A DNA stretch of 64,000 nt from Thermodesulfobacteriota bacterium (GCA_965204665.1 OZ242002.1:1433995-1497994), one strand, 5' to 3'; positions 436 to 62,160 are shown, counted from the stretch's first letter. The notes: generated by a model not told the origin, from the letters alone. Numbers and translations: made by a program.

Positions 436-1347
436 TTATATCAGAACCATTTCTTGTTGTTTCTTAATTACAAGTTCTGGGATTTCTAAGAATTCGGACC
501 CTTCGGTTAAAGACTTTTTTAAACTTGCGGCGGTATGTTGCAAAGCTACCATGAAAGGGATGTTTCTTCCTCTAAAAGACAACGGTTCAGCCAAGATGGA
601 TAGTAGAAAAGCTTTTGTTTTTTTATTGATATCAAATATTCCCCGCTCCCAGAGTTTATATACCTTTCTGTCAACTGCTGGCCTGAATGGTTCAATCAGG
701 TCGTCCGCAAGGCACATGGGATTGTATTGATTATGGTGGTGGATACCCAAAGCTGGGTGCAGACCTGTCCCGCAGATAGCGCGAGCAACGGAGGACCTTA
801 CTAGAGAGTACCCATAATTCAGCAGAGAGTTTGTCCCATCAGCTTCTTGGTCTCGTTTGAAACTTTGACCGAACATTAGCGGCCAGTAAATTCTTGATGC
901 CTGAGATTCGATATTTTCAGGGTCACCGCTCCGTACACGCGATTTCATTGAGTTGAGACCGGGAGAAGATTTTCCACAAGAAAGCAATGCCTTTATTTGA
1001 GCTTCTATTTTTGCAATTACAATCTTCTGCCAAAGACGCTTTTTTAGAGGTTTCTTCACACTCGTCTGAATATTTAAAATTTTACTGTGTAGGCAATTTC
1101 CAGAGAGAGGGAGAAGGACAGATACAGGTATATGTCTGCGGTCGCAAAAAATGATAATACAGTTGTTCTGCTGACAGGATGCTATGAGGTTTGAAGAGAT
1201 CGTCACTGATGGATTGGACACTATAAGTACTCCGATATCTTCAATTGGAATCCTTCCGACTTCGATTTTCTGCTGCTCAATTACCATCTGAAGATTCTTA
1301 GTATGAAGATAGGAAGGAGTGCTGATATCGACAATGCGTTTAACCAT
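436..1347 (-). CDS. cas1: CRISPR-associated endonuclease Cas1 (type II)
   Basis: 303 aa. Conserved Cas1 C-terminal region ...GIHHHNQYNPMCLADDLIEPFRPAVD. Overlaps the cas9 stop by 8 nt. Confidence 0.9.
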   Translation of the reverse strand: MVKRIVDISTPSYLHTKNLQMVIEQQKIEVGRIPIEDIGVLIVSNPSVTISSNLIASCQQNNCIIIFCDRRHIPVSVLLPLSGNCLHSKILNIQTSVKKPLKKRLWQKIVIAKIEAQIKALLSCGKSSPGLNSMKSRVRSGDPENIESQASRIYWPLMFGQSFKRDQEADGTNSLLNYGYSLVRSSVARAICGTGLHPALGIHHHNQYNPMCLADDLIEPFRPAVDRKVYKLWERGIFDINKKTKAFLLSILAEPLSFRGRNIPFMVALQHTAASLKKSLTEGSEFLEIPELVIKKQQEMVLI

Positions 1348-4300
1348 CTCGGTTTTTCAAGAGGACCCCGAGCACATCCACGGACTCCTTCCGCATATCA
1401 AAGTTTTTCATAAGTACTGAGATACTTTTCTGTACGCATTCCTTTTTGTTGTTTAGCGTTGCTGCACTGAGGAGTCTCAAAGTTAGTCTTGAGGCACTAG
1501 CCTCAAGTTTCTGCACACGGTAAAATACCCTTTCACCGTTCTCCTCTAGGCTTACGGTATCGTTACTGCAGAGATAGGTTATGTACTCCCAATCTTCTCC
1601 ATGTTCAGTTCTTACAATCGGCTCCTTGAATATCCGAACCTTTTTCGCAACTTCCATGGTTGTTATGAATTCACCTTCATATTTTCCGTTTTGACGGTTT
1701 CTTGTTATTTCTACATGGTGGATATTTCCGTACCTGAGAACATGTAGGGTTTTGCCTTCCTCGTTCTTGTGGTTCCAGTAGGAGTCTTCCGGAAAATCTT
1801 TCGACACCCAGACCCTTGCGCGACATATTTCGTTTCTCGTTTTCGGATGGATCAATGGCTTTTTCGACAATTGCTTCATTGCGGTTTTTACATCTCCTCC
1901 ACCCTCCCAGACATATCTCTCGACTGCAGATCTGATCACAGGGCAAACAATGTTTCCTTTTTCCTTCTCGGTCATATTCTCAAGCATTTTACGCACCACT
2001 AACCCGTGTTTTCCGCCTTCGCCTTCTCTTATCCCGTAGACCGTCTCCTCATGGAACGCTCCAGTTAATTTTCTGTTGGTAGCATGCGAGACTATGAGAT
2101 TTCCTAGTCGGTTGGAAAGAGTATCTCTCAGTTTTAGAAGCGGCGGGTCGACCTTGATTTTGTGATCGGGAGAAATGTCATCATCATCTGGTTTCTGCAA
2201 CTCGGTAATTTGATGAATGATCTTCTGGTAAAGCCTGCGGGTTGTGAGTGCGATTACAGTTGCGTCAACAGCATGGTGCCTGTGGTCTTCTCTGTTTTTT
2301 TCTCCACTATCCCCGAGCAAATTATTGAGTCCCCACTGTTTCCGTAGCCAGCTTGTCGCGCCACCTTTGGTGAAAGATACGTCACAACCTAAGTTCCTTA
2401 TATATTTTCCTGCTTCTCTTGATATGTAGCGTGCGTCTGTCAACTGATTGCTTATAAATTCATCAATTCCACCAAGGTCTTCTTTTAGTAATCTTTCTTT
2501 TTTTGGTCTGGGTAGTGAATTTGAAATTGACAAAATAGAATCCCATTCTTCAGTTTCTTCAAACGCTTCCCGAGGAGTCCTTGCTCCTTTTTCCCTGTTC
2601 TTTCTTGAAAAACAGATAACTTTGTTCATGTACGAGTCGTCAAGGGACCTCTTATACGGAAGTATATGATCAATCTCCGTTTCATCGGTAAAAAGTGTGG
2701 TTTTAGATATCATTTCTCCGCTGTAAATGCATACTCCCCCGCTTTCTTCCCATAGGCGGTATTTCAGTCTGTCCTGATAACTTATGTTCTTCTTGAGTTT
2801 AAGTTGTTGGTTATTGACCCTGATTATTTCATATTGTTCTCTAGCTCTTTCATTTGATTCTTCGTTCTTTTTGTACCTTGCGAGAGTTTCCTTGTACCTT
2901 TTAGTGTTCATTTCAAGGTCTCGCGCCATTTCTATTCGTACTGCGGATGGTTTACCGTATTTTTTGATAATTGCGTTTATAACATGTCGGAGTTCGTAGA
3001 GGGCCTTTTGAACTATTGGATTCGGTATCCAAGGTGGAGACGGAAGCAGGTCAGAATTTCCTTTTTCAACTTCACTGAACTTGTATCCTGCAATGTCTAC
3101 AGCATCATGATATTTTTTCCCTTCTTGCAGATAATGAAGAATCTTTTTCGTTGCTTTCAAAGAAAGGTTCGAATGTTCTTCCTCTAGTTCCACCACAGCA
3201 AGTCTAGTAGCTTCTTCTTCAGGAAATCTCCAGTGATTTAGGAAACGCTTTTTGAGCCCTTTTTTTGAGTTGTAAGAGATTATATCTTCGACAATCTGGG
3301 ACTGTTTCTCTTCACTGAAAGAATCCCAACTATCTCCGAGAATCTTTCTTATATCGCACGCTGTTGTATTTCCTTTGAGACCTTTTGTATTTCCCGGAAC
3401 CTTCTGAAGGTTAAATTCCGTTGCTTTGGGTAGTTTCAGAGCTTTTCTCACTGACGACCATGAGAGCCGTTTTGTCTTTTCAAGTTCACAAGCAAGATTT
3501 TTTTTCTGTTCGTCAGATAGAGGTATATCTATCTCACCTGTTTCAGGATCATCATAAGAGAGATTATTTATTTGTTGCCAGTAGCGAAATTGCTGAGATT
3601 CAAGGCGGGCATTCCTAGTTCTGCTCAACTTGGGTTCGAATGTACAATGCCCCACTCTATCCGGCTTCAGTTTAAGAGGTCTTTGGAAAAAGATGATGTG
3701 CTCAAGTTCCTCCTTCATCTTCTTATGGTAGATTTCAGGATTGAGTTCCGACTGCTTTTCCCATATCTTTTCGAACTCTTCTTTGTACATTGCCCTGTCC
3801 GTGTGTCGGTCATGTAGCGACCCCCTGTTTCGTTTGCGGGGAAGTCCAGACAGGTACTCTCCGAGAGTTCTAGTACCGACCTCGTCCATTTCCTTCCTGA
3901 GTGTTTTTATGTATCCCTTCAGATTTTTTTCGTCGTTGTCTTTATTGGAAGAGTTGTTTTCTTTTTCAAGAATGTTTTGGGCTTTGATGTCATCCGCCAA
4001 GTCTCCAAATGAGGTCTTGCGGTTGCTTAGAAACCCCCTGCGGGACCCTAGATGAAGAAGCGCTCTGCCAAACTCATGACGAGTCAGTTCCTCGTCCATC
4101 GCTTTTTTTCTTATTGAATAAGGGTCTCCCAACTTATTGAGTTCCTGCTCGGGGGAGGAATTATTCTTCAATGAATCGGGCAGAAATCCTTTGAGGACAA
4201 GGTAGTTTCTCAGGCGATTTTTACGTCTACTGCGACGTTGCACCTGTCTTCTCTGGAGGCGTGATTCTCTGCGTTTTCTATTTTTCGGGGTAGGGGATTT

Positions 4301-4447
4301 ATCTTCAACGGAGCGGATGAATATGCGACTTCCACAGTCGATAAATTTTCTGGGTTCTCCATATTTCTCTTCTATTATGCTCCATCCGATAGAGTTTGTC
4401 CCCATATCAAGTCCTATAGCGTATTCAGATAAATTCGACTTTTTCAT
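1340..4447 (-). CDS. cas9: Cas9 (type II-C, compact 1035 aa)
   Basis: RuvC-I motif IGLDMGTNSIGWSI at the N-terminus; HNH motif IDHILPYKRSLDDSYMNKVICFSRKNREKG; RuvC-III HHAVDATVIAL. Followed by cas1-cas2 with no csn2 or cas4, hence II-C. Confidence 0.95.
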   Translation of the reverse strand: MKKSNLSEYAIGLDMGTNSIGWSIIEEKYGEPRKFIDCGSRIFIRSVEDKSPTPKNRKRRESRLQRRQVQRRSRRKNRLRNYLVLKGFLPDSLKNNSSPEQELNKLGDPYSIRKKAMDEELTRHEFGRALLHLGSRRGFLSNRKTSFGDLADDIKAQNILEKENNSSNKDNDEKNLKGYIKTLRKEMDEVGTRTLGEYLSGLPRKRNRGSLHDRHTDRAMYKEEFEKIWEKQSELNPEIYHKKMKEELEHIIFFQRPLKLKPDRVGHCTFEPKLSRTRNARLESQQFRYWQQINNLSYDDPETGEIDIPLSDEQKKNLACELEKTKRLSWSSVRKALKLPKATEFNLQKVPGNTKGLKGNTTACDIRKILGDSWDSFSEEKQSQIVEDIISYNSKKGLKKRFLNHWRFPEEEATRLAVVELEEEHSNLSLKATKKILHYLQEGKKYHDAVDIAGYKFSEVEKGNSDLLPSPPWIPNPIVQKALYELRHVINAIIKKYGKPSAVRIEMARDLEMNTKRYKETLARYKKNEESNERAREQYEIIRVNNQQLKLKKNISYQDRLKYRLWEESGGVCIYSGEMISKTTLFTDETEIDHILPYKRSLDDSYMNKVICFSRKNREKGARTPREAFEETEEWDSILSISNSLPRPKKERLLKEDLGGIDEFISNQLTDARYISREAGKYIRNLGCDVSFTKGGATSWLRKQWGLNNLLGDSGEKNREDHRHHAVDATVIALTTRRLYQKIIHQITELQKPDDDDISPDHKIKVDPPLLKLRDTLSNRLGNLIVSHATNRKLTGAFHEETVYGIREGEGGKHGLVVRKMLENMTEKEKGNIVCPVIRSAVERYVWEGGGDVKTAMKQLSKKPLIHPKTRNEICRARVWVSKDFPEDSYWNHKNEEGKTLHVLRYGNIHHVEITRNRQNGKYEGEFITTMEVAKKVRIFKEPIVRTEHGEDWEYITYLCSNDTVSLEENGERVFYRVQKLEASASRLTLRLLSAATLNNKKECVQKSISVLMKNFDMRKESVDVLGVLLKNRDG

Positions 4448-33459: not shown

Positions 33460-33557
33460 AGATATTTTGGGAAAAAATCCTGTCTGGTGTTTCTGTTCCC
33501 CGAGTCGTTCTAGATTCTATACTATGTCAGTTTTCTGTCAAGAATCTTCCTGATGAT

Positions 33558-41790: not shown

Positions 41791-41865
41791 GGGCGGTTAG
41801 CTCAGCGGGAGAGCATCTGCCTTACAAGCAGAGGGTCACAGGTTCAAATCCTGTACCGCCCACCA
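41791..41865 (+). tRNA. tRNA-Val (anticodon TAC), CCA encoded
   Basis: Cloverleaf readable by eye: acceptor GGGCGGT/ACCGCCC, anticodon loop CTTACAA, T-loop GGTTCAAATCC. Confidence 0.85.
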
Positions 41866-41873
41866 TTTTAAAC

Positions 41874-41948
41874 GGGGCCGTAGTTCAGTTTGGTCAGAAC
41901 GCTGGCCTGTCAAGCCAGAGGTCGCGGGTTCAAATCCCGTCGGTCCCG
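41874..41948 (+). tRNA. tRNA-Asp (anticodon GTC)
   Basis: Acceptor GGGGCCG/CGGTCCC (one G-U), anticodon loop CTGTCAA, T-loop GGTTCAAATCC. 8 nt after tRNA-Val. Confidence 0.85.
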
Positions 41949-42314
41949 CACCCCGATTTATTTTACAGCGCCCGTCCCATGGCCCTCTGTCGGTTTTTGT
42001 ACGCACCTTGGTCTATCCCCCCCCTCTCATCTCAATTTGCAAAGTCTAAGCGAGACAGGGCTGTGTTTCTCGTAACTCGCCGAGCAGGCGAACAAACAAC
42101 TGTCGCAGTGAACGGACCGGAGAAAAGAGTGTCAGTATGCAGCGTACGGTTGTTTTGATGCGTCAAGCAGACTTGAGCAACCGAGCGCGAATTGTTTCAT
42201 AACATGTCTTGGACCCGACTCGGCGTCCTCGTCCGATGTATCTGCGTATTTGCTTGAAATTATATAAAATAGTATCAGAAATGAAGATTTATATTCAAAT
42301 CTGAGCATGGAGAG

Positions 42315-47520: not shown

Positions 47521-47613
47521 GAGTAATTGCGGGATAAGTCCTTGACCGTAGTGAGTCTCTGAATAATATTAATAGTGATAAAGGATATTTCGGGAGAAAT
47601 TCTGTTTCTTTTC
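47521..47613 (+). repeat. Direct repeat copy 1 (~83% identical to 48261-48353); a diverged duplicate of the kefB promoter/5' coding end
   Basis: By-eye alignment: 93 nt, ~16 mismatches. Encodes a pseudo-start MIKDISGEILFLFAVA, resembling the kefB start MKDILGEILLLFVVAV. Confidence 0.6.
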
Positions 47614-47696
47614 GCGGTTGCGGAACGCCCGTTAAACTTCAAAGTGCAGCACTCGGGACTGCCGGACTTGCTGTTGCGCCCGCTCTGGAACCGGCA

Positions 47697-48120: not shown

Positions 48121-48260
48121 CCGCAGCTGGAGCAATGCGGTCTTGAGGGGGGGGCATCGGCTTCGAGCCGGCCCCGGACGCGCGGGGATGGTCCGGTGCG
48201 ATGGTACGGGCAGAAACATTCAGTTGTCGTGATGGAAGTTTAACGGGCGGAACGGTTGAG

Positions 48261-48353
48261 GGATAAGCCCTTGATCGGATGGAGCCCCTGAATAATATTG
48301 ATAGCTATGAAGGATATTTTGGGAGAAATTCTGCTTCTTTTCGTGGTTGCGGT
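48261..48353 (+). repeat. Direct repeat copy 2 (the functional kefB 5' region)
   Basis: See copy 1. Contains the kefB start codon at 48298. Confidence 0.6.
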
Positions 48354-50010
48354 TTTCATGATCGTTCTGTTCCGCCGATTAAAGCTGCCGCCTATTCTTG
48401 GATATATGTTTGCGGGCATACTGTTCGGCCCTCATGCGCTCGGCGTTTTTGAGGACAGAGAGACCGTTCATATACTCGGGGAAATAGGAATTGCCTTCAT
48501 GCTGTTCGTGATAGGGCTTGAATTCTCCCTTACTCGTTTCTGGCACATGCGGCGAATCCTTTTGGGTCTCGGAGGTGTGCAGGTTTTCGTGGGTACGGTT
48601 TTCGGCGGTCTCATAGGTTGGCATATGGGAATCGGTTGGCCGGCAGTTCTCATAGTGGGCGGAGCGCTCGCGCTTTCTTCCACGGCTATTGTTGTAAAAC
48701 AGCTTACGGAACAGGCGGAACTTCACAGCCCGCACGGGCGGTTTTCTCTCGGGATACTTCTGTTTCAGGATGTGGCCGCCGTCATTTTTCTTGCAATGAT
48801 TCCCAGTTTGTCAGTGCAGGGATTCTCGGGTTCCGGTCAGGAACTGTTCTACTCTCTGATTGAAGGAACGCTCGCTTTCGTTGTTCTTATCGCCGTAGGA
48901 CATTGGTTGCTTGAGCCGCTTTTTCGTGAGGTTTCCGCCGCAGATTCCAAGGAACTTTTTACGCTGACTGTTCTGCTGGTATCTCTTTTTGCCGCTTGGT
49001 TTACTTATCTCATGGGTCTTTCCCTTGCGCTGGGATCTTTCCTTGCCGGAATGATGCTGAGCGAAACTAGATATCGTCATCAGATAGAAGAAGAGCTCAG
49101 ACCCTTTCGAGACATTCTTCTCGGTCTTTTCTTCATCGTAGTGGGTATGCAGATCAATCTCGGTGCGTTTTCAGATGTGTGGCTGTGGGTGATTGTTGTG
49201 TTTGTCGGGCTTTTGCTGGGTAAGGGTCTCCTTATATATCTGCTTGTACTCTTGACCGGGACTGACAGAGTAACCGCGGTGCGCACGAGTCTTGTCTTGT
49301 CTCAAGGCGGTGAATTTGGATTTGCTCTCATAACATTGGCGGTGAACAGAGGTCTGCTTTCCAATTCCGATAGTCAGGCGATACTGATTGCCGTGGGACT
49401 TTCGATGCTGATAGCTCCTGTTCTTATACGTTACAGCGGCATTATTGCCAATCGTTTCTCCCCTACCCCTAAAGAAGTGACGCAGGAAGAAAAGGAGATT
49501 TCCGACATCGTTGCCGCAGTCGAGGAAATCACATCCAAGCCTCATGTGGTTATCTGCGGCTATGGAAGAGTGGGGCGCGTGATCGCGCATTTTCTGCGTC
49601 TTCAGGATATAAACTTTATTGCTCTTGACAGGGATAAGGAACAGGTCAAGCTGGCGTTGGAAGACGGAGAGAATGTACTCTGCGCGGATGTAAATCGCGC
49701 GGAGGTTCTTTCCGCTATATCACTTGAAAATTCGCTTGCCCTCGTGATCAGTTTTAACAACGCGGAGAGAGCTGCAAATATAATCCGGTACGTACGTGAG
49801 CGTTACGAGTCTCTTCCGATCCTGGTCAGGGCCGACAACGCGGATGACATGAAATCCTTGCTTTCCATAGGGGCCAGCGAAGTGGTCCCGGAAGTCATGG
49901 AGTTAGGGTCTTTGGTGTCGAGGCAGCTTCTTCTCTCTCTAGGACTATCTGAAGACGAGGTTTCGGAACGAATAAGTAAATTCAAGGAAGACCATTACGG
50001 ATTGCCCTGA
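48298..50010 (+). CDS. kefB: CPA2-family K+/H+ antiporter with C-terminal RCK/TrkA-N domain (KefB/KefC-like)
   Basis: ~12 TM Na+/H+ exchanger domain, then a Rossmann motif ICGYGRVGRVIAHFL. 570 aa. Confidence 0.85.
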   Translation: MIAMKDILGEILLLFVVAVFMIVLFRRLKLPPILGYMFAGILFGPHALGVFEDRETVHILGEIGIAFMLFVIGLEFSLTRFWHMRRILLGLGGVQVFVGTVFGGLIGWHMGIGWPAVLIVGGALALSSTAIVVKQLTEQAELHSPHGRFSLGILLFQDVAAVIFLAMIPSLSVQGFSGSGQELFYSLIEGTLAFVVLIAVGHWLLEPLFREVSAADSKELFTLTVLLVSLFAAWFTYLMGLSLALGSFLAGMMLSETRYRHQIEEELRPFRDILLGLFFIVVGMQINLGAFSDVWLWVIVVFVGLLLGKGLLIYLLVLLTGTDRVTAVRTSLVLSQGGEFGFALITLAVNRGLLSNSDSQAILIAVGLSMLIAPVLIRYSGIIANRFSPTPKEVTQEEKEISDIVAAVEEITSKPHVVICGYGRVGRVIAHFLRLQDINFIALDRDKEQVKLALEDGENVLCADVNRAEVLSAISLENSLALVISFNNAERAANIIRYVRERYESLPILVRADNADDMKSLLSIGASEVVPEVMELGSLVSRQLLLSLGLSEDEVSERISKFKEDHYGLP

Positions 50011-50153
50011 GATCTTAAAATCACTGCGCTCTCCGTCCTCGTAGAAACAATCCCGATGTCACCCGCCGCTTCCATCCGCAATCACCTTATATGAGAGCGC
50101 TCGAACGGTTGGAGTTCGTGAATCTGAAAAGAGTGTCAAACACCCTCTCCGTA

Positions 50154-50882
50154 CTAGATTATTCCCTTAAGTTCCGACAGGTCGTTTATCGTAAACAAGG
50201 GGTTTGCTCGGATGGTCTGTTCTCTTCTTTTCACCCATACGGAATCCATTCCGCATTCTGCGGAACCCGCGATATCCGCTTCGGGGTTGTCTCCTACAAA
50301 GACCGTGTTGGATGGCTCTTCATTCATACGGTCAAGGGCTGCCTTGAATATTTCGGGGTGTGGTTTTCTCCAGCCCACTTCTTCTGAAACCACCACTTGC
50401 TCGAAGAACTCGGAGATCCCGAATTTTTCAAGCAGTTTCAAAGCGGTGGGCGCGTGATCAAAGTTCGAAACCACGCAGAGTCTGTACTCTCCGTCTCTCA
50501 GATAAGAGAGAATATCCGTGTGGCTCTCCGGATATATCACGGCGGTGCATAGACTCTCCATGTGCGAGGATACGAGGTTGTTTATGAGATTTTCATCTTT
50601 TTTCATGCCTGTTCTTTCAAGAAGTATCTCAAACCTTTTGCTGTTTGGATATTCCCGCAGGTTTTTTTTCCGCATTTTCATGATCTCTTTATGACTTTCG
50701 AGAAAAGATATGCAGAAATCACTGAATTCCATGTCGCCGAAACTGCTCCCGAGTTCGTTGAAGACACCCTGCGCGGTCGTGTTCCATGTTTTTCCGTTAA
50801 CGGTGATTTCAGGCAGAAGAGACGGTTCGAACATCACAAGCGTGTCGAACAGGTCGAAAAAGACGGTCGAGTACTTTTTCAT
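50154..50882 (-). CDS. HAD-family hydrolase
   Basis: Motif I FFDLFDTLV, motif IV VGDNPEADIAG. Start set at MKKYSTVFFDLFDTL. Confidence 0.7.
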   Translation of the reverse strand: MKKYSTVFFDLFDTLVMFEPSLLPEITVNGKTWNTTAQGVFNELGSSFGDMEFSDFCISFLESHKEIMKMRKKNLREYPNSKRFEILLERTGMKKDENLINNLVSSHMESLCTAVIYPESHTDILSYLRDGEYRLCVVSNFDHAPTALKLLEKFGISEFFEQVVVSEEVGWRKPHPEIFKAALDRMNEEPSNTVFVGDNPEADIAGSAECGMDSVWVKRREQTIRANPLFTINDLSELKGII

Positions 50883-52775: not shown

Positions 52776-53296
52776 ATGATTAGGAATGCGTTTCTTATTG
52801 GATTTCTGCTGCTTGGTTCCGTTGCTTGCGGGGGGGGGGCGATGACGGAGAGGCGGAAATAGAGTACGACTGCGAAGAGGTTGTCAGGATAGAACCTTTA
52901 CCTAGGGGAACCTATCCTGCAGCATTGGTGGGAGAGTGGGATTGCGAAAGTTCCGACGGTTCAAGTTCAACCCAGATTATCAGTTCTGACGGGACCTTCT
53001 TTCTCGAACTCAGTCCCGGCGACTATCCTTCTGAAGTTCGGGAAATACGGAATCAATGCGGAATCGGAACTTCACCTCCTGATATTGCCGGTCACTGGAT
53101 TGTTGATGGAACCCGAATGTGCCTTCGATACGATGTGATGCCCGGAATAATCGCATGCGGACCTTTTAGAATAAATCAGCTGGGAGAGTGGATATCTTCT
53201 CCTTCCGATGTAATAGAGTTCTATCAGTATGGACGATTAGTAACATCAAGTGCCATTGGAAGTATTCAAGGCGGCGGTCGTTGTGTAAAGAGATGA
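52776..53296 (+). CDS. Small Cys-rich lipoprotein, currently out of frame at a G10 tract just after the lipobox Cys
   Basis: RBS AAGGAGG, then ATG at 52776 encoding MIRNAFLIGFLLLGSVAC, then G10 (52830-52839). As read, the signal-peptide frame terminates at 52860. The mature-protein ORF (52826-53296) is in a different frame, and G11 would fuse them. Confidence 0.5.
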
Positions 53297-59722: not shown

Positions 59723-59993
59723 GGTGACGGTAATTATATTTATATTTGCTGTATCGTCAAAGACGGAATTGCAGATTTGTTATCTGTTCCGCATGAATTG
59801 AACTCGGATTCGGTTTCGGACGGGATATTATCGAATGCGGAAATGATTCCGGCTGAATGATCTCCACAACACGCTCTTTCATGGCGTCCGACATTCAACG
59901 GAAAAATGTTTTGTCGCAATGTAAAAAACTTACGGGTGATATATGCAAGGTATGTGGGATATCCACGGGTCGGATATGGTGTCTGTTCGCTGC

Positions 59994-60111: not shown

Positions 60112-61452
60112 TCAGTCCACGAATTCCCGTCGGGCCGCTGTATTGCGGATTGTATCTGCTACACCGGATGACTGTAACTGAACAACATCATCGAAAGTAG
60201 TGGTTCCTGCTACGATAACGGAAATATTAACGGTGCCGGTTCCGCCGAACGTTTTGGCTCCTTGGGGGAAACCCTTGAAGCGGATCTTGTCGTTCTGTGA
60301 TGCATTAAAGTCCCTGATAGCGTCCTTCTCATTTCTGTGCTCGTATTCAAGGACGAAGATGTCGGCGCCGGCCTGGCCGTAAAGAATGTCGGCACCGGCA
60401 CCACCTGTAATAACATCATTACCACCCCCTCCAGCGAGCAGATCATTTCCGGCTTTTCCGTTAATCGTATCGTTTCCACCCAGCCCGTAAAGGTGATTTC
60501 CCAGAGCATCTCCGCTGATGGTATCATTGGCGCTAGTGGCCATAACGTTCTCAATACCTGTAAATGTAGACATTCCCCAACCATGAGTACTGCCGTCGAA
60601 AGACCCGGTGGAAAGATCAAAGGTTACAGATGTATTCACAAAATTGAAGACAGCTTGGGAATTATCCTTCAATCCCGGCAATATGGCACTTGCACTAGGT
60701 ATATTACCTATGAGCATCAAATCATTTGCAGCAGCACCACGAAGAGCAGTTCCTGTCGGGGTGCCGCCGTTAAATCTGTTATTCCCTGGTTCAGTCAGAA
60801 AAAAAACATCTCCACCGTCTCCACCGTTGAGCGTATCATTGCCGTCGCCGCCATAGAGTACGTCCCGTCCCGCATCGCCGTTGATGGTATCATCGCCGCC
60901 TGCTCCCCGGATATAATCAGCACCGTCTCCGCCGTGGATGGTATTGGCGCCGGCGGTGGCCCAGATTGTATCATCTCCGTCTCCGCCGTAGATGATGTCG
61001 TCGGTAGTTCCCGAGAGGTTGCCGTCAAGATGAGCATCAATGTGGTCATCTCCGTCTTCACCATATATCGTATCCGTGCCGGCACCGCCGCCTATCTTGT
61101 CGTTTCCGGCACCGGCGTAAACAGTATCATCGCCGTCTCCGGCATTAATCGTGTTTTTGTACTGATTTCCGCATATGACATCGTCGTCATCAGTCCCCGT
61201 GATATCATTGGAGATACCGGGCAGCGCATTTATACCGTTGCTCACGTCGCATCTGGGGTCACCGAAGGACTTTCCCTGATCTCCCTGCGGGCCCCCCGCT
61301 CCCTGTGTTCCCGGATCTCCTTTATCTCCTTTCGCCCCGTCTTTCCCTGCCGGACCTGCTGGTCCCGCAGGACCTCTATCCCCCTCACAAGCAACAAAGA
61401 AAACCGCTCCGCCGAGCAGAAACAACAAAACTAAGAAATTACGTAACTTCAT
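60112..61452 (-). CDS. Secreted lipoprotein with collagen-like (G-X-Y)13 segment followed by RTX-type Ca2+-binding beta-roll repeats
   Basis: Signal peptide with lipobox FFVAC; GPAGPAGPAGKDGAKGDKGDPGTQGAGGPQGDQG; many GGxGxDxux nonapeptides (GGDGDDTIW, GGAGNDKIGGGAGTDTIYG, GGNDTINGKAGNDLLAGGGGNDVITGGAGADILYG). Confidence 0.75.
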   Translation of the reverse strand: MKLRNFLVLLFLLGGAVFFVACEGDRGPAGPAGPAGKDGAKGDKGDPGTQGAGGPQGDQGKSFGDPRCDVSNGINALPGISNDITGTDDDDVICGNQYKNTINAGDGDDTVYAGAGNDKIGGGAGTDTIYGEDGDDHIDAHLDGNLSGTTDDIIYGGDGDDTIWATAGANTIHGGDGADYIRGAGGDDTINGDAGRDVLYGGDGNDTLNGGDGGDVFFLTEPGNNRFNGGTPTGTALRGAAANDLMLIGNIPSASAILPGLKDNSQAVFNFVNTSVTFDLSTGSFDGSTHGWGMSTFTGIENVMATSANDTISGDALGNHLYGLGGNDTINGKAGNDLLAGGGGNDVITGGAGADILYGQAGADIFVLEYEHRNEKDAIRDFNASQNDKIRFKGFPQGAKTFGGTGTVNISVIVAGTTTFDDVVQLQSSGVADTIRNTAARREFVD

Positions 61453-61480
61453 GACAAAACCTCCTTAAGCAGATGTTTTG

Positions 61481-61507
61481 ATTCTACCCCCCCCCATATG
61501 AAGTCAA
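61481..61507 (-). promoter_or_regulatory. Sigma70-like promoter TTGACT-N15-TAGAAT whose spacer contains a G9 homopolymer (minus-strand sense)
   Basis: Minus-sense reading: TTGACT tcatat GGGGGGGGG TAGAAT ...AAGGAGG-7nt-ATG of the lipoprotein gene. With 9 G the spacer is 15 nt; G11 would give the optimal 17. Confidence 0.45.
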
Positions 61508-61753
61508 GCAATCTTTTTGAAGAGATAGTCGAGACTGTGAAGATATTCTGAGGTTCTGCATTGTTAAGCGTAGACCTCGGAACCGAGATGTTTTTATAGA
61601 ATATGATTTGTATCCATTTTTCTTTCCTCGGCCGATACTATCTGAAGCGGCATAATTATCTTTGCTCCCGCCCATTACAGGCAGTCAGGAGTCGGCATCA
61701 CCTCTTTCCCGAGGTATGAATACACTATTCTTGATACCGAGGTGTAATACGCA

Positions 61754-62131: not shown

Positions 62132-62160
62132 TTGACATTGCGTCGCAGCGAAATTATATT
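62132..62160 (+). promoter_or_regulatory. Candidate sigma70 promoter TTGACA-N17-TATATT immediately upstream of hrcA
   Basis: Perfect -35 and near-consensus -10 with 17-nt spacing. The -10 ends only 8 nt before the annotated ATG, implying a leaderless or very short-leader mRNA, or a downstream start. No CIRCE element was seen by eye. Confidence 0.35.

Follow-up and report, generated by a model that had tools for sequence, protein, structure and literature searches.

Introduction

The question raised by the locus described here is whether a run of nine guanines, lying within the promoter of a gene for a surface lipoprotein, acts as a length-dependent switch of transcription or simply belongs to a promoter of fixed design. 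The gene occurs in the window, i.e., the whole 64,000-nucleotide stretch of DNA that was analysed, which derives from a genome labelled as a Thermodesulfobacteriota bacterium, and the initial annotation of this stretch proposed that the tract provides phase variation of the type known from the porA gene of Neisseria. Phase-variable surface-protein families are a textbook feature of animal pathogens such as Neisseria, Treponema, Mycoplasma, Bordetella and Campylobacter. A homopolymer located in a promoter spacer is a known kind of mechanism, and the novelty of the present case resides in the lineage, the protein family and the unusual scale. The literature searched contained nothing describing the protein family, the sample accessions or phase variation in Dadabacteria, nor did it report a phase-variable surface family in Dadabacteria or, within Thermodesulfobacteriota, one made up of these proteins.

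The Promoter and Its G9 Tract

The region upstream of the lipoprotein gene comprises the following elements, all located on the minus strand:

61512-61519, minus strand: A-rich stretch caaaaaga, a short distance 5' of the -35 hexamer; most paralogs are A-rich at this place
61502-61507, minus strand: -35 hexamer TTGACT (direct reading); TTGAC is invariant in six paralog promoters and in 16 sister-genome paralogs
61496-61501, minus strand: variable part of the spacer, tcatat, 6 nt (direct reading)
61487-61495, minus strand: G9 homopolymer (C9 on the plus strand), 3' part of the spacer, abutting the -10 hexamer (direct reading)
61481-61486, minus strand: -10 hexamer TAGAAT (direct reading); TA-AAT is invariant across the paralogs
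61460-61466, minus strand: Shine-Dalgarno sequence AAGGAGG, 7 nt 5' of the ATG; the AGGAGG core is similarly placed in all paralogs

On the plus strand, the same positions read ATTCTA (61481-61486), C9 (61487-61495), ATATGA (61496-61501) and AGTCAA (61502-61507). The homopolymer sits between the recognisable -35 and -10 hexamers of the lipoprotein gene promoter, in a spacer of 6 + 9 = 15 nt; 14 nt separate TAGAAT from AAGGAGG, and the promoter stands 29 nt 5' of the ATG (61450-61452). The initial annotation had read TTGACT-tcatat-G9-TAGAAT followed by AAGGAGG and the ATG, which the sequence confirms together with the 15-nt length of the spacer. The caaaaaga stretch (61512-61519) is possibly UP-element-like and might assist the promoter in that capacity.

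The distribution of G/C runs in the window (48% G+C) sets this tract apart. Runs of length 5 and 6 occur 52 and 4 times, respectively, and runs of length 7 do not occur, whereas four runs of 8 to 10 are found (C8 at 42017, G8 at 48147, G10 at 52830 and C9 at 61487). Runs of at least 8 are far above the chance expectation and form a class separate from the chance distribution, so that the G9 tract is not a product of chance. It belongs, with high probability, to a promoter spacer. A generic promoter scan, which considers spacers of 16-18 nt only, did not return the 61481-61507 site, as expected for a spacer of 15 nt. The other strong TTGAC-type matches in the window are located 5' of hrcA at 62132 (17 nt), 5' of lpd at 59760 (16 nt) and at 33541 (16 nt), and their spacing of 16-17 nt indicates that the canonical distance seems to hold in this organism.

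Other readings of the region were tried and rejected. Shifting the -35 hexamer to obtain a spacer of 17 nt leads to NNTTGA, which leaves the consensus unmatched in every paralog. With respect to known RNA elements, Rfam gives only two tRNAs across the whole window. Finally, a lone G-run should be unable to fold into an intramolecular G-quadruplex.

The Collagen-Like/RTX Lipoprotein

The gene located downstream of the promoter and its product comprise the following parts:

60112-61452, minus strand: coding sequence of the 446-aa collagen-like/RTX lipoprotein (ORF; Pfam HemolysinCabind, E = 2.4e-39), a member of a large paralog family
61387-61452, minus strand: signal peptide and lipobox MKLRNFLVLLFLLGGAVFFVAC, with Cys22 (translation; helix at residues 2-21 in the model)
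61267-61383, minus strand: collagen-like region, 13 uninterrupted G-X-Y triplets, aa 24-62 (translation)
60403-61245, minus strand: RTX calcium-binding beta-roll, aa ~70-350 (five HemolysinCabind stretches; AlphaFold model)

The earlier description of the product as a collagen/RTX lipoprotein is borne out by Pfam, by the alignment of the paralogs and by the AlphaFold model. The model (18 paralogs) consists of a signal helix, a collagen segment predicted at low confidence, which is attributable to the modelling of a monomer, and a regular beta-roll of short strands spanning residues ~70-350, with a block-mean pLDDT of mostly ~90. The Scl-type bacterial collagen-like proteins are characterised by an uninterrupted run of G-X-Y triplets of sufficient length for a triple helix, to which the 13 triplets of the window protein may or may not amount; its Pfam Collagen score remains below threshold (22.4 bits vs a cut-off of 27.2), although most of the paralogs have the precomputed Pfam domain. 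The closest solved sequences are the RTX blocks of CyaA and the serralysins, and all NCBIfam profile matches to the window protein fall far under their cut-off. The RTX repeats adopt a beta-roll as in the type 1-secreted RTX proteins, from which the window protein differs by its N-terminal signal peptide. Owing to this lipoprotein signal peptide and its conserved Cys22, the product is considered as an RTX-repeat lipoprotein and not as a classical type-1-secreted RTX toxin.

In the alignment of the paralogs, the signal peptide and lipobox are near-invariant (A21, C22, E23 and G24 are invariant in 18 paralogs) and the block GDPRCDVSNG...DDDVICGN is conserved, whereas the number of collagen triplets differs among paralogs and the RTX head is diversified. 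Judged from the sequences, such a layout, in which a conserved signal peptide and stalk carry a diversified head, appears typical of variable surface proteins.

A Paralog Family Shared by Two Genomes

Homology searches revealed at least 28 paralogs on a contig of 1,980,752 bp, which is presumably the window's own chromosome since it encodes a protein (P0001) 100% identical to the window protein. At least 34 further paralogs occur on a contig of 2,386,527 bp, OZ220467.1, labelled 'MAG: Thermodesulfobacteriota bacterium' and hereafter referred to as the sister genome. Outside of these two genomes and the satellite contigs of the same two ENA samples, the searches returned generic RTX proteins only. 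The HrcA protein encoded in the window is 87% identical to that of the sister genome and 77% identical to that of a Candidatus Dadabacteria MAG. The contig names (ctgN_2x_l) fit the naming of metaMDBG assemblies of PacBio HiFi data as produced in the Sanger host-metagenome projects. These projects have been described (PMC12648040), and an origin from a host, e.g., a sponge, would be our guess.

The paralogs are scattered singly among housekeeping genes (hrcA/lpd, DivIC/PALP, SAM synthetase/Rpe and others) and do not cluster at a single locus. The slots that they occupy differ between the two species, which indicates that the family is either mobile or has expanded independently; some paralogs are flanked by IS fragments. 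In the sister genome, for example, P0032 (G13 promoter, L087 2035-3771) is located between the genes of a Na+/H+ exchanger and a HAD hydrolase, and the syntenic slot of the window (50010-50154) is an empty intergenic region of 144 bp.

Paralog Promoters in the Window's Species

Promoters were read for 6 of the ~28 paralogs of the window's species, i.e., about a fifth, from the window and from six low-coverage (2-3x) contigs of the ENA sample ERZ26693861 (L081, L082, L083, L084, L085 and L086). L081 carries the orthologue, a second copy, of the window gene, so that the window and the six contigs provide seven G9 readings for six loci. All six loci exhibit the architecture TTGAC[T/A]-N6-G9-TA[G/A]AAT with a 15-nt spacer. 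The sole elements that remain invariant in the alignment of the six promoters are TTGAC, the pure G9, TA-AAT, the Shine-Dalgarno region and the beginning of the ORF. The six nucleotides beside the tract keep their length and vary in sequence (tcatat, taaata, catgta, tcattt, taccac and tgatta), and the loci also differ from one another in their upstream DNA and in their 5'UTRs (about 29-95 nt). The promoter tracts are the sole G/C runs of 7 or more in ~50 kb of these contigs.

The recurrence of the same hexamers at six diverged loci strongly supports their assignment to a real promoter, and the seven independent readings favour a genuine modal tract length of 9. The maintenance of a pure G9 amidst diverged flanks further argues that the uninterrupted G-run itself is selected, since a given spacer length requires no guanines. 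The placement of the tract in a promoter spacer, as initially proposed, is upheld by the conservation of the G9 and of the sigma-70-type hexamers across the six paralogs, and the promoter design is family-wide, i.e., much broader than the single gene for which it had been proposed. A second RTX gene located on L085 (4535-5434, minus strand) encodes a different signal peptide and has no G-tract promoter, which shows that the tract is specific to the paralog family and does not accompany RTX genes generally. None of the six promoters of the window's species has an IS element next to it.

A close paralog of the window gene occurs on L084 (7549-8864), a 2x contig, in which an indel in the collagen-coding region gives two ORFs of 127 aa and 287 aa; the split corresponds either to a sequencing error at low coverage or to a pseudogene. 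The promoter and 5'UTR of this copy are nearly identical to those of the window gene, which points to a recent duplication or a gene conversion.

Paralog Promoters in the Sister Genome

In OZ220467.1, 20 paralog loci display a long G-tract (G10-G17) located 5' of a -10-like hexamer; L028 is a fragment match of 40 residues only and has no tract. These lengths, like those of the window's species, come from consensus assemblies, probably built from PacBio HiFi data with metaMDBG, in which long homopolymers (G12-G17) may be off by about a base. At 16 of the 20 loci a -35 hexamer accompanies the tract in the arrangement TCCTTGACT-N5-7-G10..15-TAAACT/TAAAAT/TAGAAT, the -35 being TTGACT. The 16 spacers measure 17 nt (one), 18 nt (three), 19 nt (seven), 20 nt (four) and 21 nt (one). 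The remaining four loci have a tract devoid of any recognisable -35, which has been replaced by an IS in three of them. Taken at face value, spacers that are mostly non-optimal, with a few at 17-18 nt, would form the pattern expected if most members of the family were silent at once.

Subgroups of these loci share near-identical upstream flanks over at least 100 nt and yet differ in tract length (e.g., G13 in L008 and L013, G12 in L015, G15 in L010 and L016). The repeat thus mutates faster than its flanks, as is classically seen with contingency tracts prone to slippage. A MerR-type control of the long spacers of the sister genome was also considered and rejected, since the tract appears to lack dyad symmetry.

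Loci L001-L021 of the sister genome possess a conserved 5'UTR of ~100 nt with a perfect palindrome, CCATTTATAAATGG, about 20-35 nt 5' of the ATG. From its sequence, the palindrome may serve as an operator or fold into an RNA hairpin, which would add a second layer of control. The paralogs of the window's species, the 5'UTRs of which are short and divergent, do not have it.

The insertion sequence encountered at the sister-lineage promoters is an ISAs1-like element whose transposase combines DDE_Tnp_1 and DDE_Tnp_1_assoc domains. At four loci it lies immediately 5' of the tract, where it has taken the place of the -35 hexamer, with the following junctions on OZ220467.1 and on a strain-variant contig of the same sample:

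L001 1072-1100: IS/tract junction
L020 1049-1071: IS/tract junction
L088 2377-2400: IS/tract junction
L033 ~1035-1100: IS/tract junction

The IS end reads ...TTAGAAAGCCCT followed by G11-17 at three of these loci, and the fourth, inserted in the opposite orientation, reads ...GAATGGTCCT followed by G11. The end TTAGAA-agccct-Gn mimics the layout of a -35 hexamer plus 6 nt. The insertions suggest a targeting of the G-tract and possibly create hybrid promoters, to judge from the junction sequences.

Comparison of Tract Lengths at the Same Locus

The defining property of phase variation is a change of length at one locus within a population, and in this respect the same-locus comparisons are few and mixed, none of them giving a clear case of such a change. 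Over 4,745 bp, L081 shows 99.96% identity to the window, and the tract is G9 in each; no length variation was seen among the six loci read in the window's species, all G9, or within this strain pair. In the sister sample, L087 and L088 correspond to one locus in two strains, with G13 and G12, respectively. However, the IS has replaced everything 5' of the L088 tract and its insertion confounds the comparison. The sister-sample orthologues L006 and L089, with flanks ~93% identical, read tatgt-G14 and tatgtga-G12; the spacer measures 19 nt in both, so that the difference results from an A/G substitution and not from slippage. That six diverged paralogs of the window's species should all have exactly G9 is puzzling.

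Resemblance to Known Homopolymer Switches

Among the closest counterparts is porA of Neisseria meningitidis, which likewise has a G homopolymer within the sigma-70 promoter spacer of a surface-protein gene. Van der Ende et al. reportedly found in 1995 that G11, G10 and G9 at porA correspond to high, medium and no expression. This series matches exactly the spacers of 17, 16 and 15 nt that are possible in the window promoter. The length of the porA spacer sets the level of transcription, with an optimum at 17 nt, and its shortening abolishes transcription (PMC7864442). In contrast to the dozens of lipoprotein paralogs considered here, porA is a single-copy porin gene, for which length variation at the same locus is documented.

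In Treponema pallidum, poly-G tracts occur in the promoters of a family of paralogous outer-surface proteins, tp0126 and the tpr genes (E, G, J, L), which resembles the present situation. The poly-G of tp0126 lies between the -35 and -10 elements and is optimal at a 17-nt spacing, and at tprL G9 predominates in vivo, with minorities of G7-G11 (PMC7864442). The tpr tracts differ, however, by their position just 5' of the transcription start, which is not strictly within the spacer, and the family is smaller and consists of beta-barrel porins of a pathogenic spirochaete instead of lipoproteins.

The vlp genes of Mycoplasma hyorhinis, like the present family, are numerous relatives encoding surface lipoproteins; their 5' end and signal peptide are conserved, the remainder varies, and each gene has its own homopolymer-containing promoter. 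There are about 7 vlp genes, clustered at one locus. Each vlp promoter contains a poly-A tract in which indels switch the gene independently of the others, and the size of the proteins varies through the copy number of their repeats (PMC10502178). The variable number of collagen triplets among the paralogs parallels this size variation, but the vlp tracts are poly-A and their proteins are unrelated, whereas here the tracts are poly-G and ~30-40 genes are dispersed singly among housekeeping genes.

Finally, the fimbrial genes of Bordetella are paralogous genes for surface structures, each endowed with a long G/C homopolymer in its promoter. They encode fimbrial subunits and number only four, and their C-stretch lies between the binding site of the BvgA activator and the -10 element, no recognisable -35 preceding it. 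The window tract differs in this respect, since it follows a recognisable -35 hexamer. The C-stretches of fim2, fim3, fimX and fimN range from C7 to C22 between paralogs and strains, and their length affects transcription (PMC1891110).

A Probable Spacer-Length Switch and Its Alternatives

On balance, the G9 tract probably works as a length-dependent slippage switch, a reading that is somewhat better than even and is only partly supported for the window's species. According to this reading, the surface lipoprotein, which combines a lipid anchor with a collagen-like stalk and an RTX beta-roll, would be driven by a sigma-70-type promoter (TTGACT-15 nt-TAGAAT) in which the G9 fills the 3' part of the spacer; the pure homopolymer would probably be retained for its proneness to slipped-strand mispairing, and the spacer-length switch, of the porA/tp0126 type, would operate gene by gene across the paralog family, as is the case for vlp and fim. 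Since poly-G spacers obey a 17-nt optimum elsewhere and the other promoters of the window have spacers of 16-17 nt, the G9 form (15 nt) is predicted to be OFF or very weak, the G10 form (16 nt) to be low and the G11 form (17 nt) to be optimal, in line with the graded switch of the initial annotation. The ON and OFF lengths are thus borrowed from porA and tp0126. That RNA polymerase uses these hexamers, that the longer tracts correspond to the ON state and that lengths change within populations of the window's species is what we infer.

The porA-style phase variation put forward in the initial annotation consequently stands in part: the conserved tract in the spacer, the length polymorphism in the sister genome, the second tract at 52830 (see below) and the variable-surface-protein layout of the product are in its favour, whereas the occurrence of G9 in 6/6 paralogs and in both members of the strain pair speaks against it. 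The uniform length is unlike that of a freely drifting repeat, and it would put every sampled copy in the OFF state. Slippage with a length attractor might reconcile the uniform G9 with switching: the consensus would correspond to the modal, silent G9, and rare cells would carry expanded, active alleles. In Campylobacter jejuni, an insertion bias at G8 and a deletion bias at G11 and above hold the tracts at G9-G10 (PMC8355987).

The main competitor of the switch is a fixed promoter element, in which G9 and 15 nt represent the selected functional form, weak by design or dependent on an activator, and stable in length on ecological time scales; the guanine at -14 may belong to an extended -10, or a rigid G/C spacer may tune the strength of the promoter. 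We consider it unlikely, even though it accounts more simply for the finding of the same G9 in six paralogs that have diverged and in both strains of one pair, and even though the total of 15 nt looks constrained, the N6 keeping its length while its sequence changes, just as the sister orthologue pair holds a 19-nt spacer despite a flank divergence of ~7%. Setting a length, however, needs no pure homopolymer, and the sister genome tolerates G10-G17 in otherwise conserved promoters, which argues against any exact length or fixed site throughout the family. A uniform consensus G9 also fits fast switching near a mutational attractor, as illustrated by the G9-G10 of C. jejuni (PMC8355987) and the mostly G9 tract of tprL (PMC7864442), and transcription at porA is lost once its poly-G spacer falls short of the optimal 17 nt (PMC7864442).

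The tract might otherwise be retained as a recognition or target sequence, whether as a hotspot for the ISAs1-like element, a recombination site used for dispersal or conversion of the genes, or the binding site of a regulator of G-runs, its position in the spacer being secondary. The same IS abutting the 5' edge of the tract at four sister-lineage loci, in both orientations and in place of the -35, and the different chromosomal sites of the paralogs in the two species, some beside other IS fragments, lend themselves to such an explanation. It is very improbable all the same, since none of the six promoters of the window's species adjoins an IS, the targeting by an IS is a consequence of the tract and no reason for its conservation, tract lengths ranging from G9 to G17 speak against a defined protein-binding site, and in both species the tract is precisely placed with respect to the two hexamers. 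As for a chance match to the hexamers or a functionless assembly artefact, long-read consensus homopolymers can err by a base and the generic promoter scan missed the site, but an identical architecture at six loci on separate contigs and at 16 or more loci of another genome, together with the distribution of run lengths, effectively refutes it.

Should the spacer-length switch operate as proposed, an uncultured bacterium with a small genome would devote ~30-40 genes to the stochastic, gene-by-gene control of a collagen-like, calcium-binding coat, which would imply a strong and fluctuating selection on its surface, e.g., by host recognition or phagocytosis, by phages using surface receptors or by grazing. 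The length of the tract per locus and per read would then become a marker of the heterogeneity of symbiont populations in long-read metagenomes. For annotation, G-tract lengths and apparent pseudogene status in HiFi MAGs are to be read as state-dependent.

A broader scenario combines these elements: an uncultured and probably host-associated bacterium of the Dadabacteria lineage would possess ~30-40 dispersed genes for a coat of collagen-stalk/RTX lipoproteins that is OFF by default and switchable in combination, each gene having its own poly-G spacer; silent copies would be parked on either side of the spacing optimum, at 15 nt in one of the two sister species and at ~19 nt in the other, and the IS would home to the G-tract as a second control of the promoter, unless the strict G9 represents a previously undescribed fixed element that is read by a dedicated factor and does not involve slippage. 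Taken as a whole, this scenario is rather improbable.

Additional G-Tracts and Other Features of the Window

A second lipoprotein gene of the window also contains a G-tract, in this case within the coding region:

52830-52839, plus strand: G10 tract right behind the lipobox Cys in the gene of a small lipoprotein (52776-53296, ATG at 52776), placing the remainder out of frame; the product starts with MIRNAFLIGFLLLGSVAC

At G10 the product measures 28 aa, whereas G8 or G11 give 172 or 173 aa; G10 thus truncates the lipoprotein and G8 or G11 restore it, which upholds the supporting role given to this coding-region tract in the initial annotation. Pfam returned no domain in the 52776-53296 lipoprotein. 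Its only homologue outside the source genome is the sister orthologue P0123, the called product of which starts with MGGGGGTEIEYDCEE (MGGGGG). Such a start points to a longer G-tract at the same position, which again separates the signal peptide from the called ORF. In both species, then, G-tracts are maintained at lipoprotein genes of two kinds, presumably with an effect on transcription in one and on translation in the other.

A scan of metagenomes with the pattern GGGGGGGGGTANANTCAAA gave at least 120 matches, none of which is a member of the family, the pattern being too unspecific; nine of the matches are promoters of the TTGAC-spacer-G9+ type preceding unrelated genes. The arrangement TTGACN-N6-7-G9-TA[A/G]AAT occurs 5' of unrelated ORFs of other uncultured bacteria, as in L193 (minus strand, ~4166), L106 (12) and L094 (1811), and the ORFs behind promoters of this type have predicted lipoprotein or signal-peptide N-termini, e.g., ...SIMSCGDD and ...AAVSCKDD. 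Poly-G spacer promoters of exported proteins may accordingly be more widespread, the search pattern being biased towards them.

The G8 tract of the window (48147-48154) lies inside a GC-rich insert of ~730 bp that contains a broken Macro-domain ORF. The insert is bracketed by a 97-nt direct repeat (47527-47623 and 48256-48352, 85% identical) that duplicates the upstream region and the 5' end of a Na+/H+ exchanger gene. The C8 tract (42017-42024) is located 68 nt 3' of a tRNA-Val/tRNA-Asp pair (41791-41949) and ~290 nt 5' of the gene of a 1721-aa DEAD/UvrD fusion helicase; no promoter hexamers resembling those of the family occur there.

At the other end of the window, positions 1340-4447 (minus strand) encode a Cas9-like ORF of 1035 aa with HNH_4, RuvC_III and Cas9 alpha-helical lobe domains, which indicates that a type II CRISPR-Cas system probably lies nearby.
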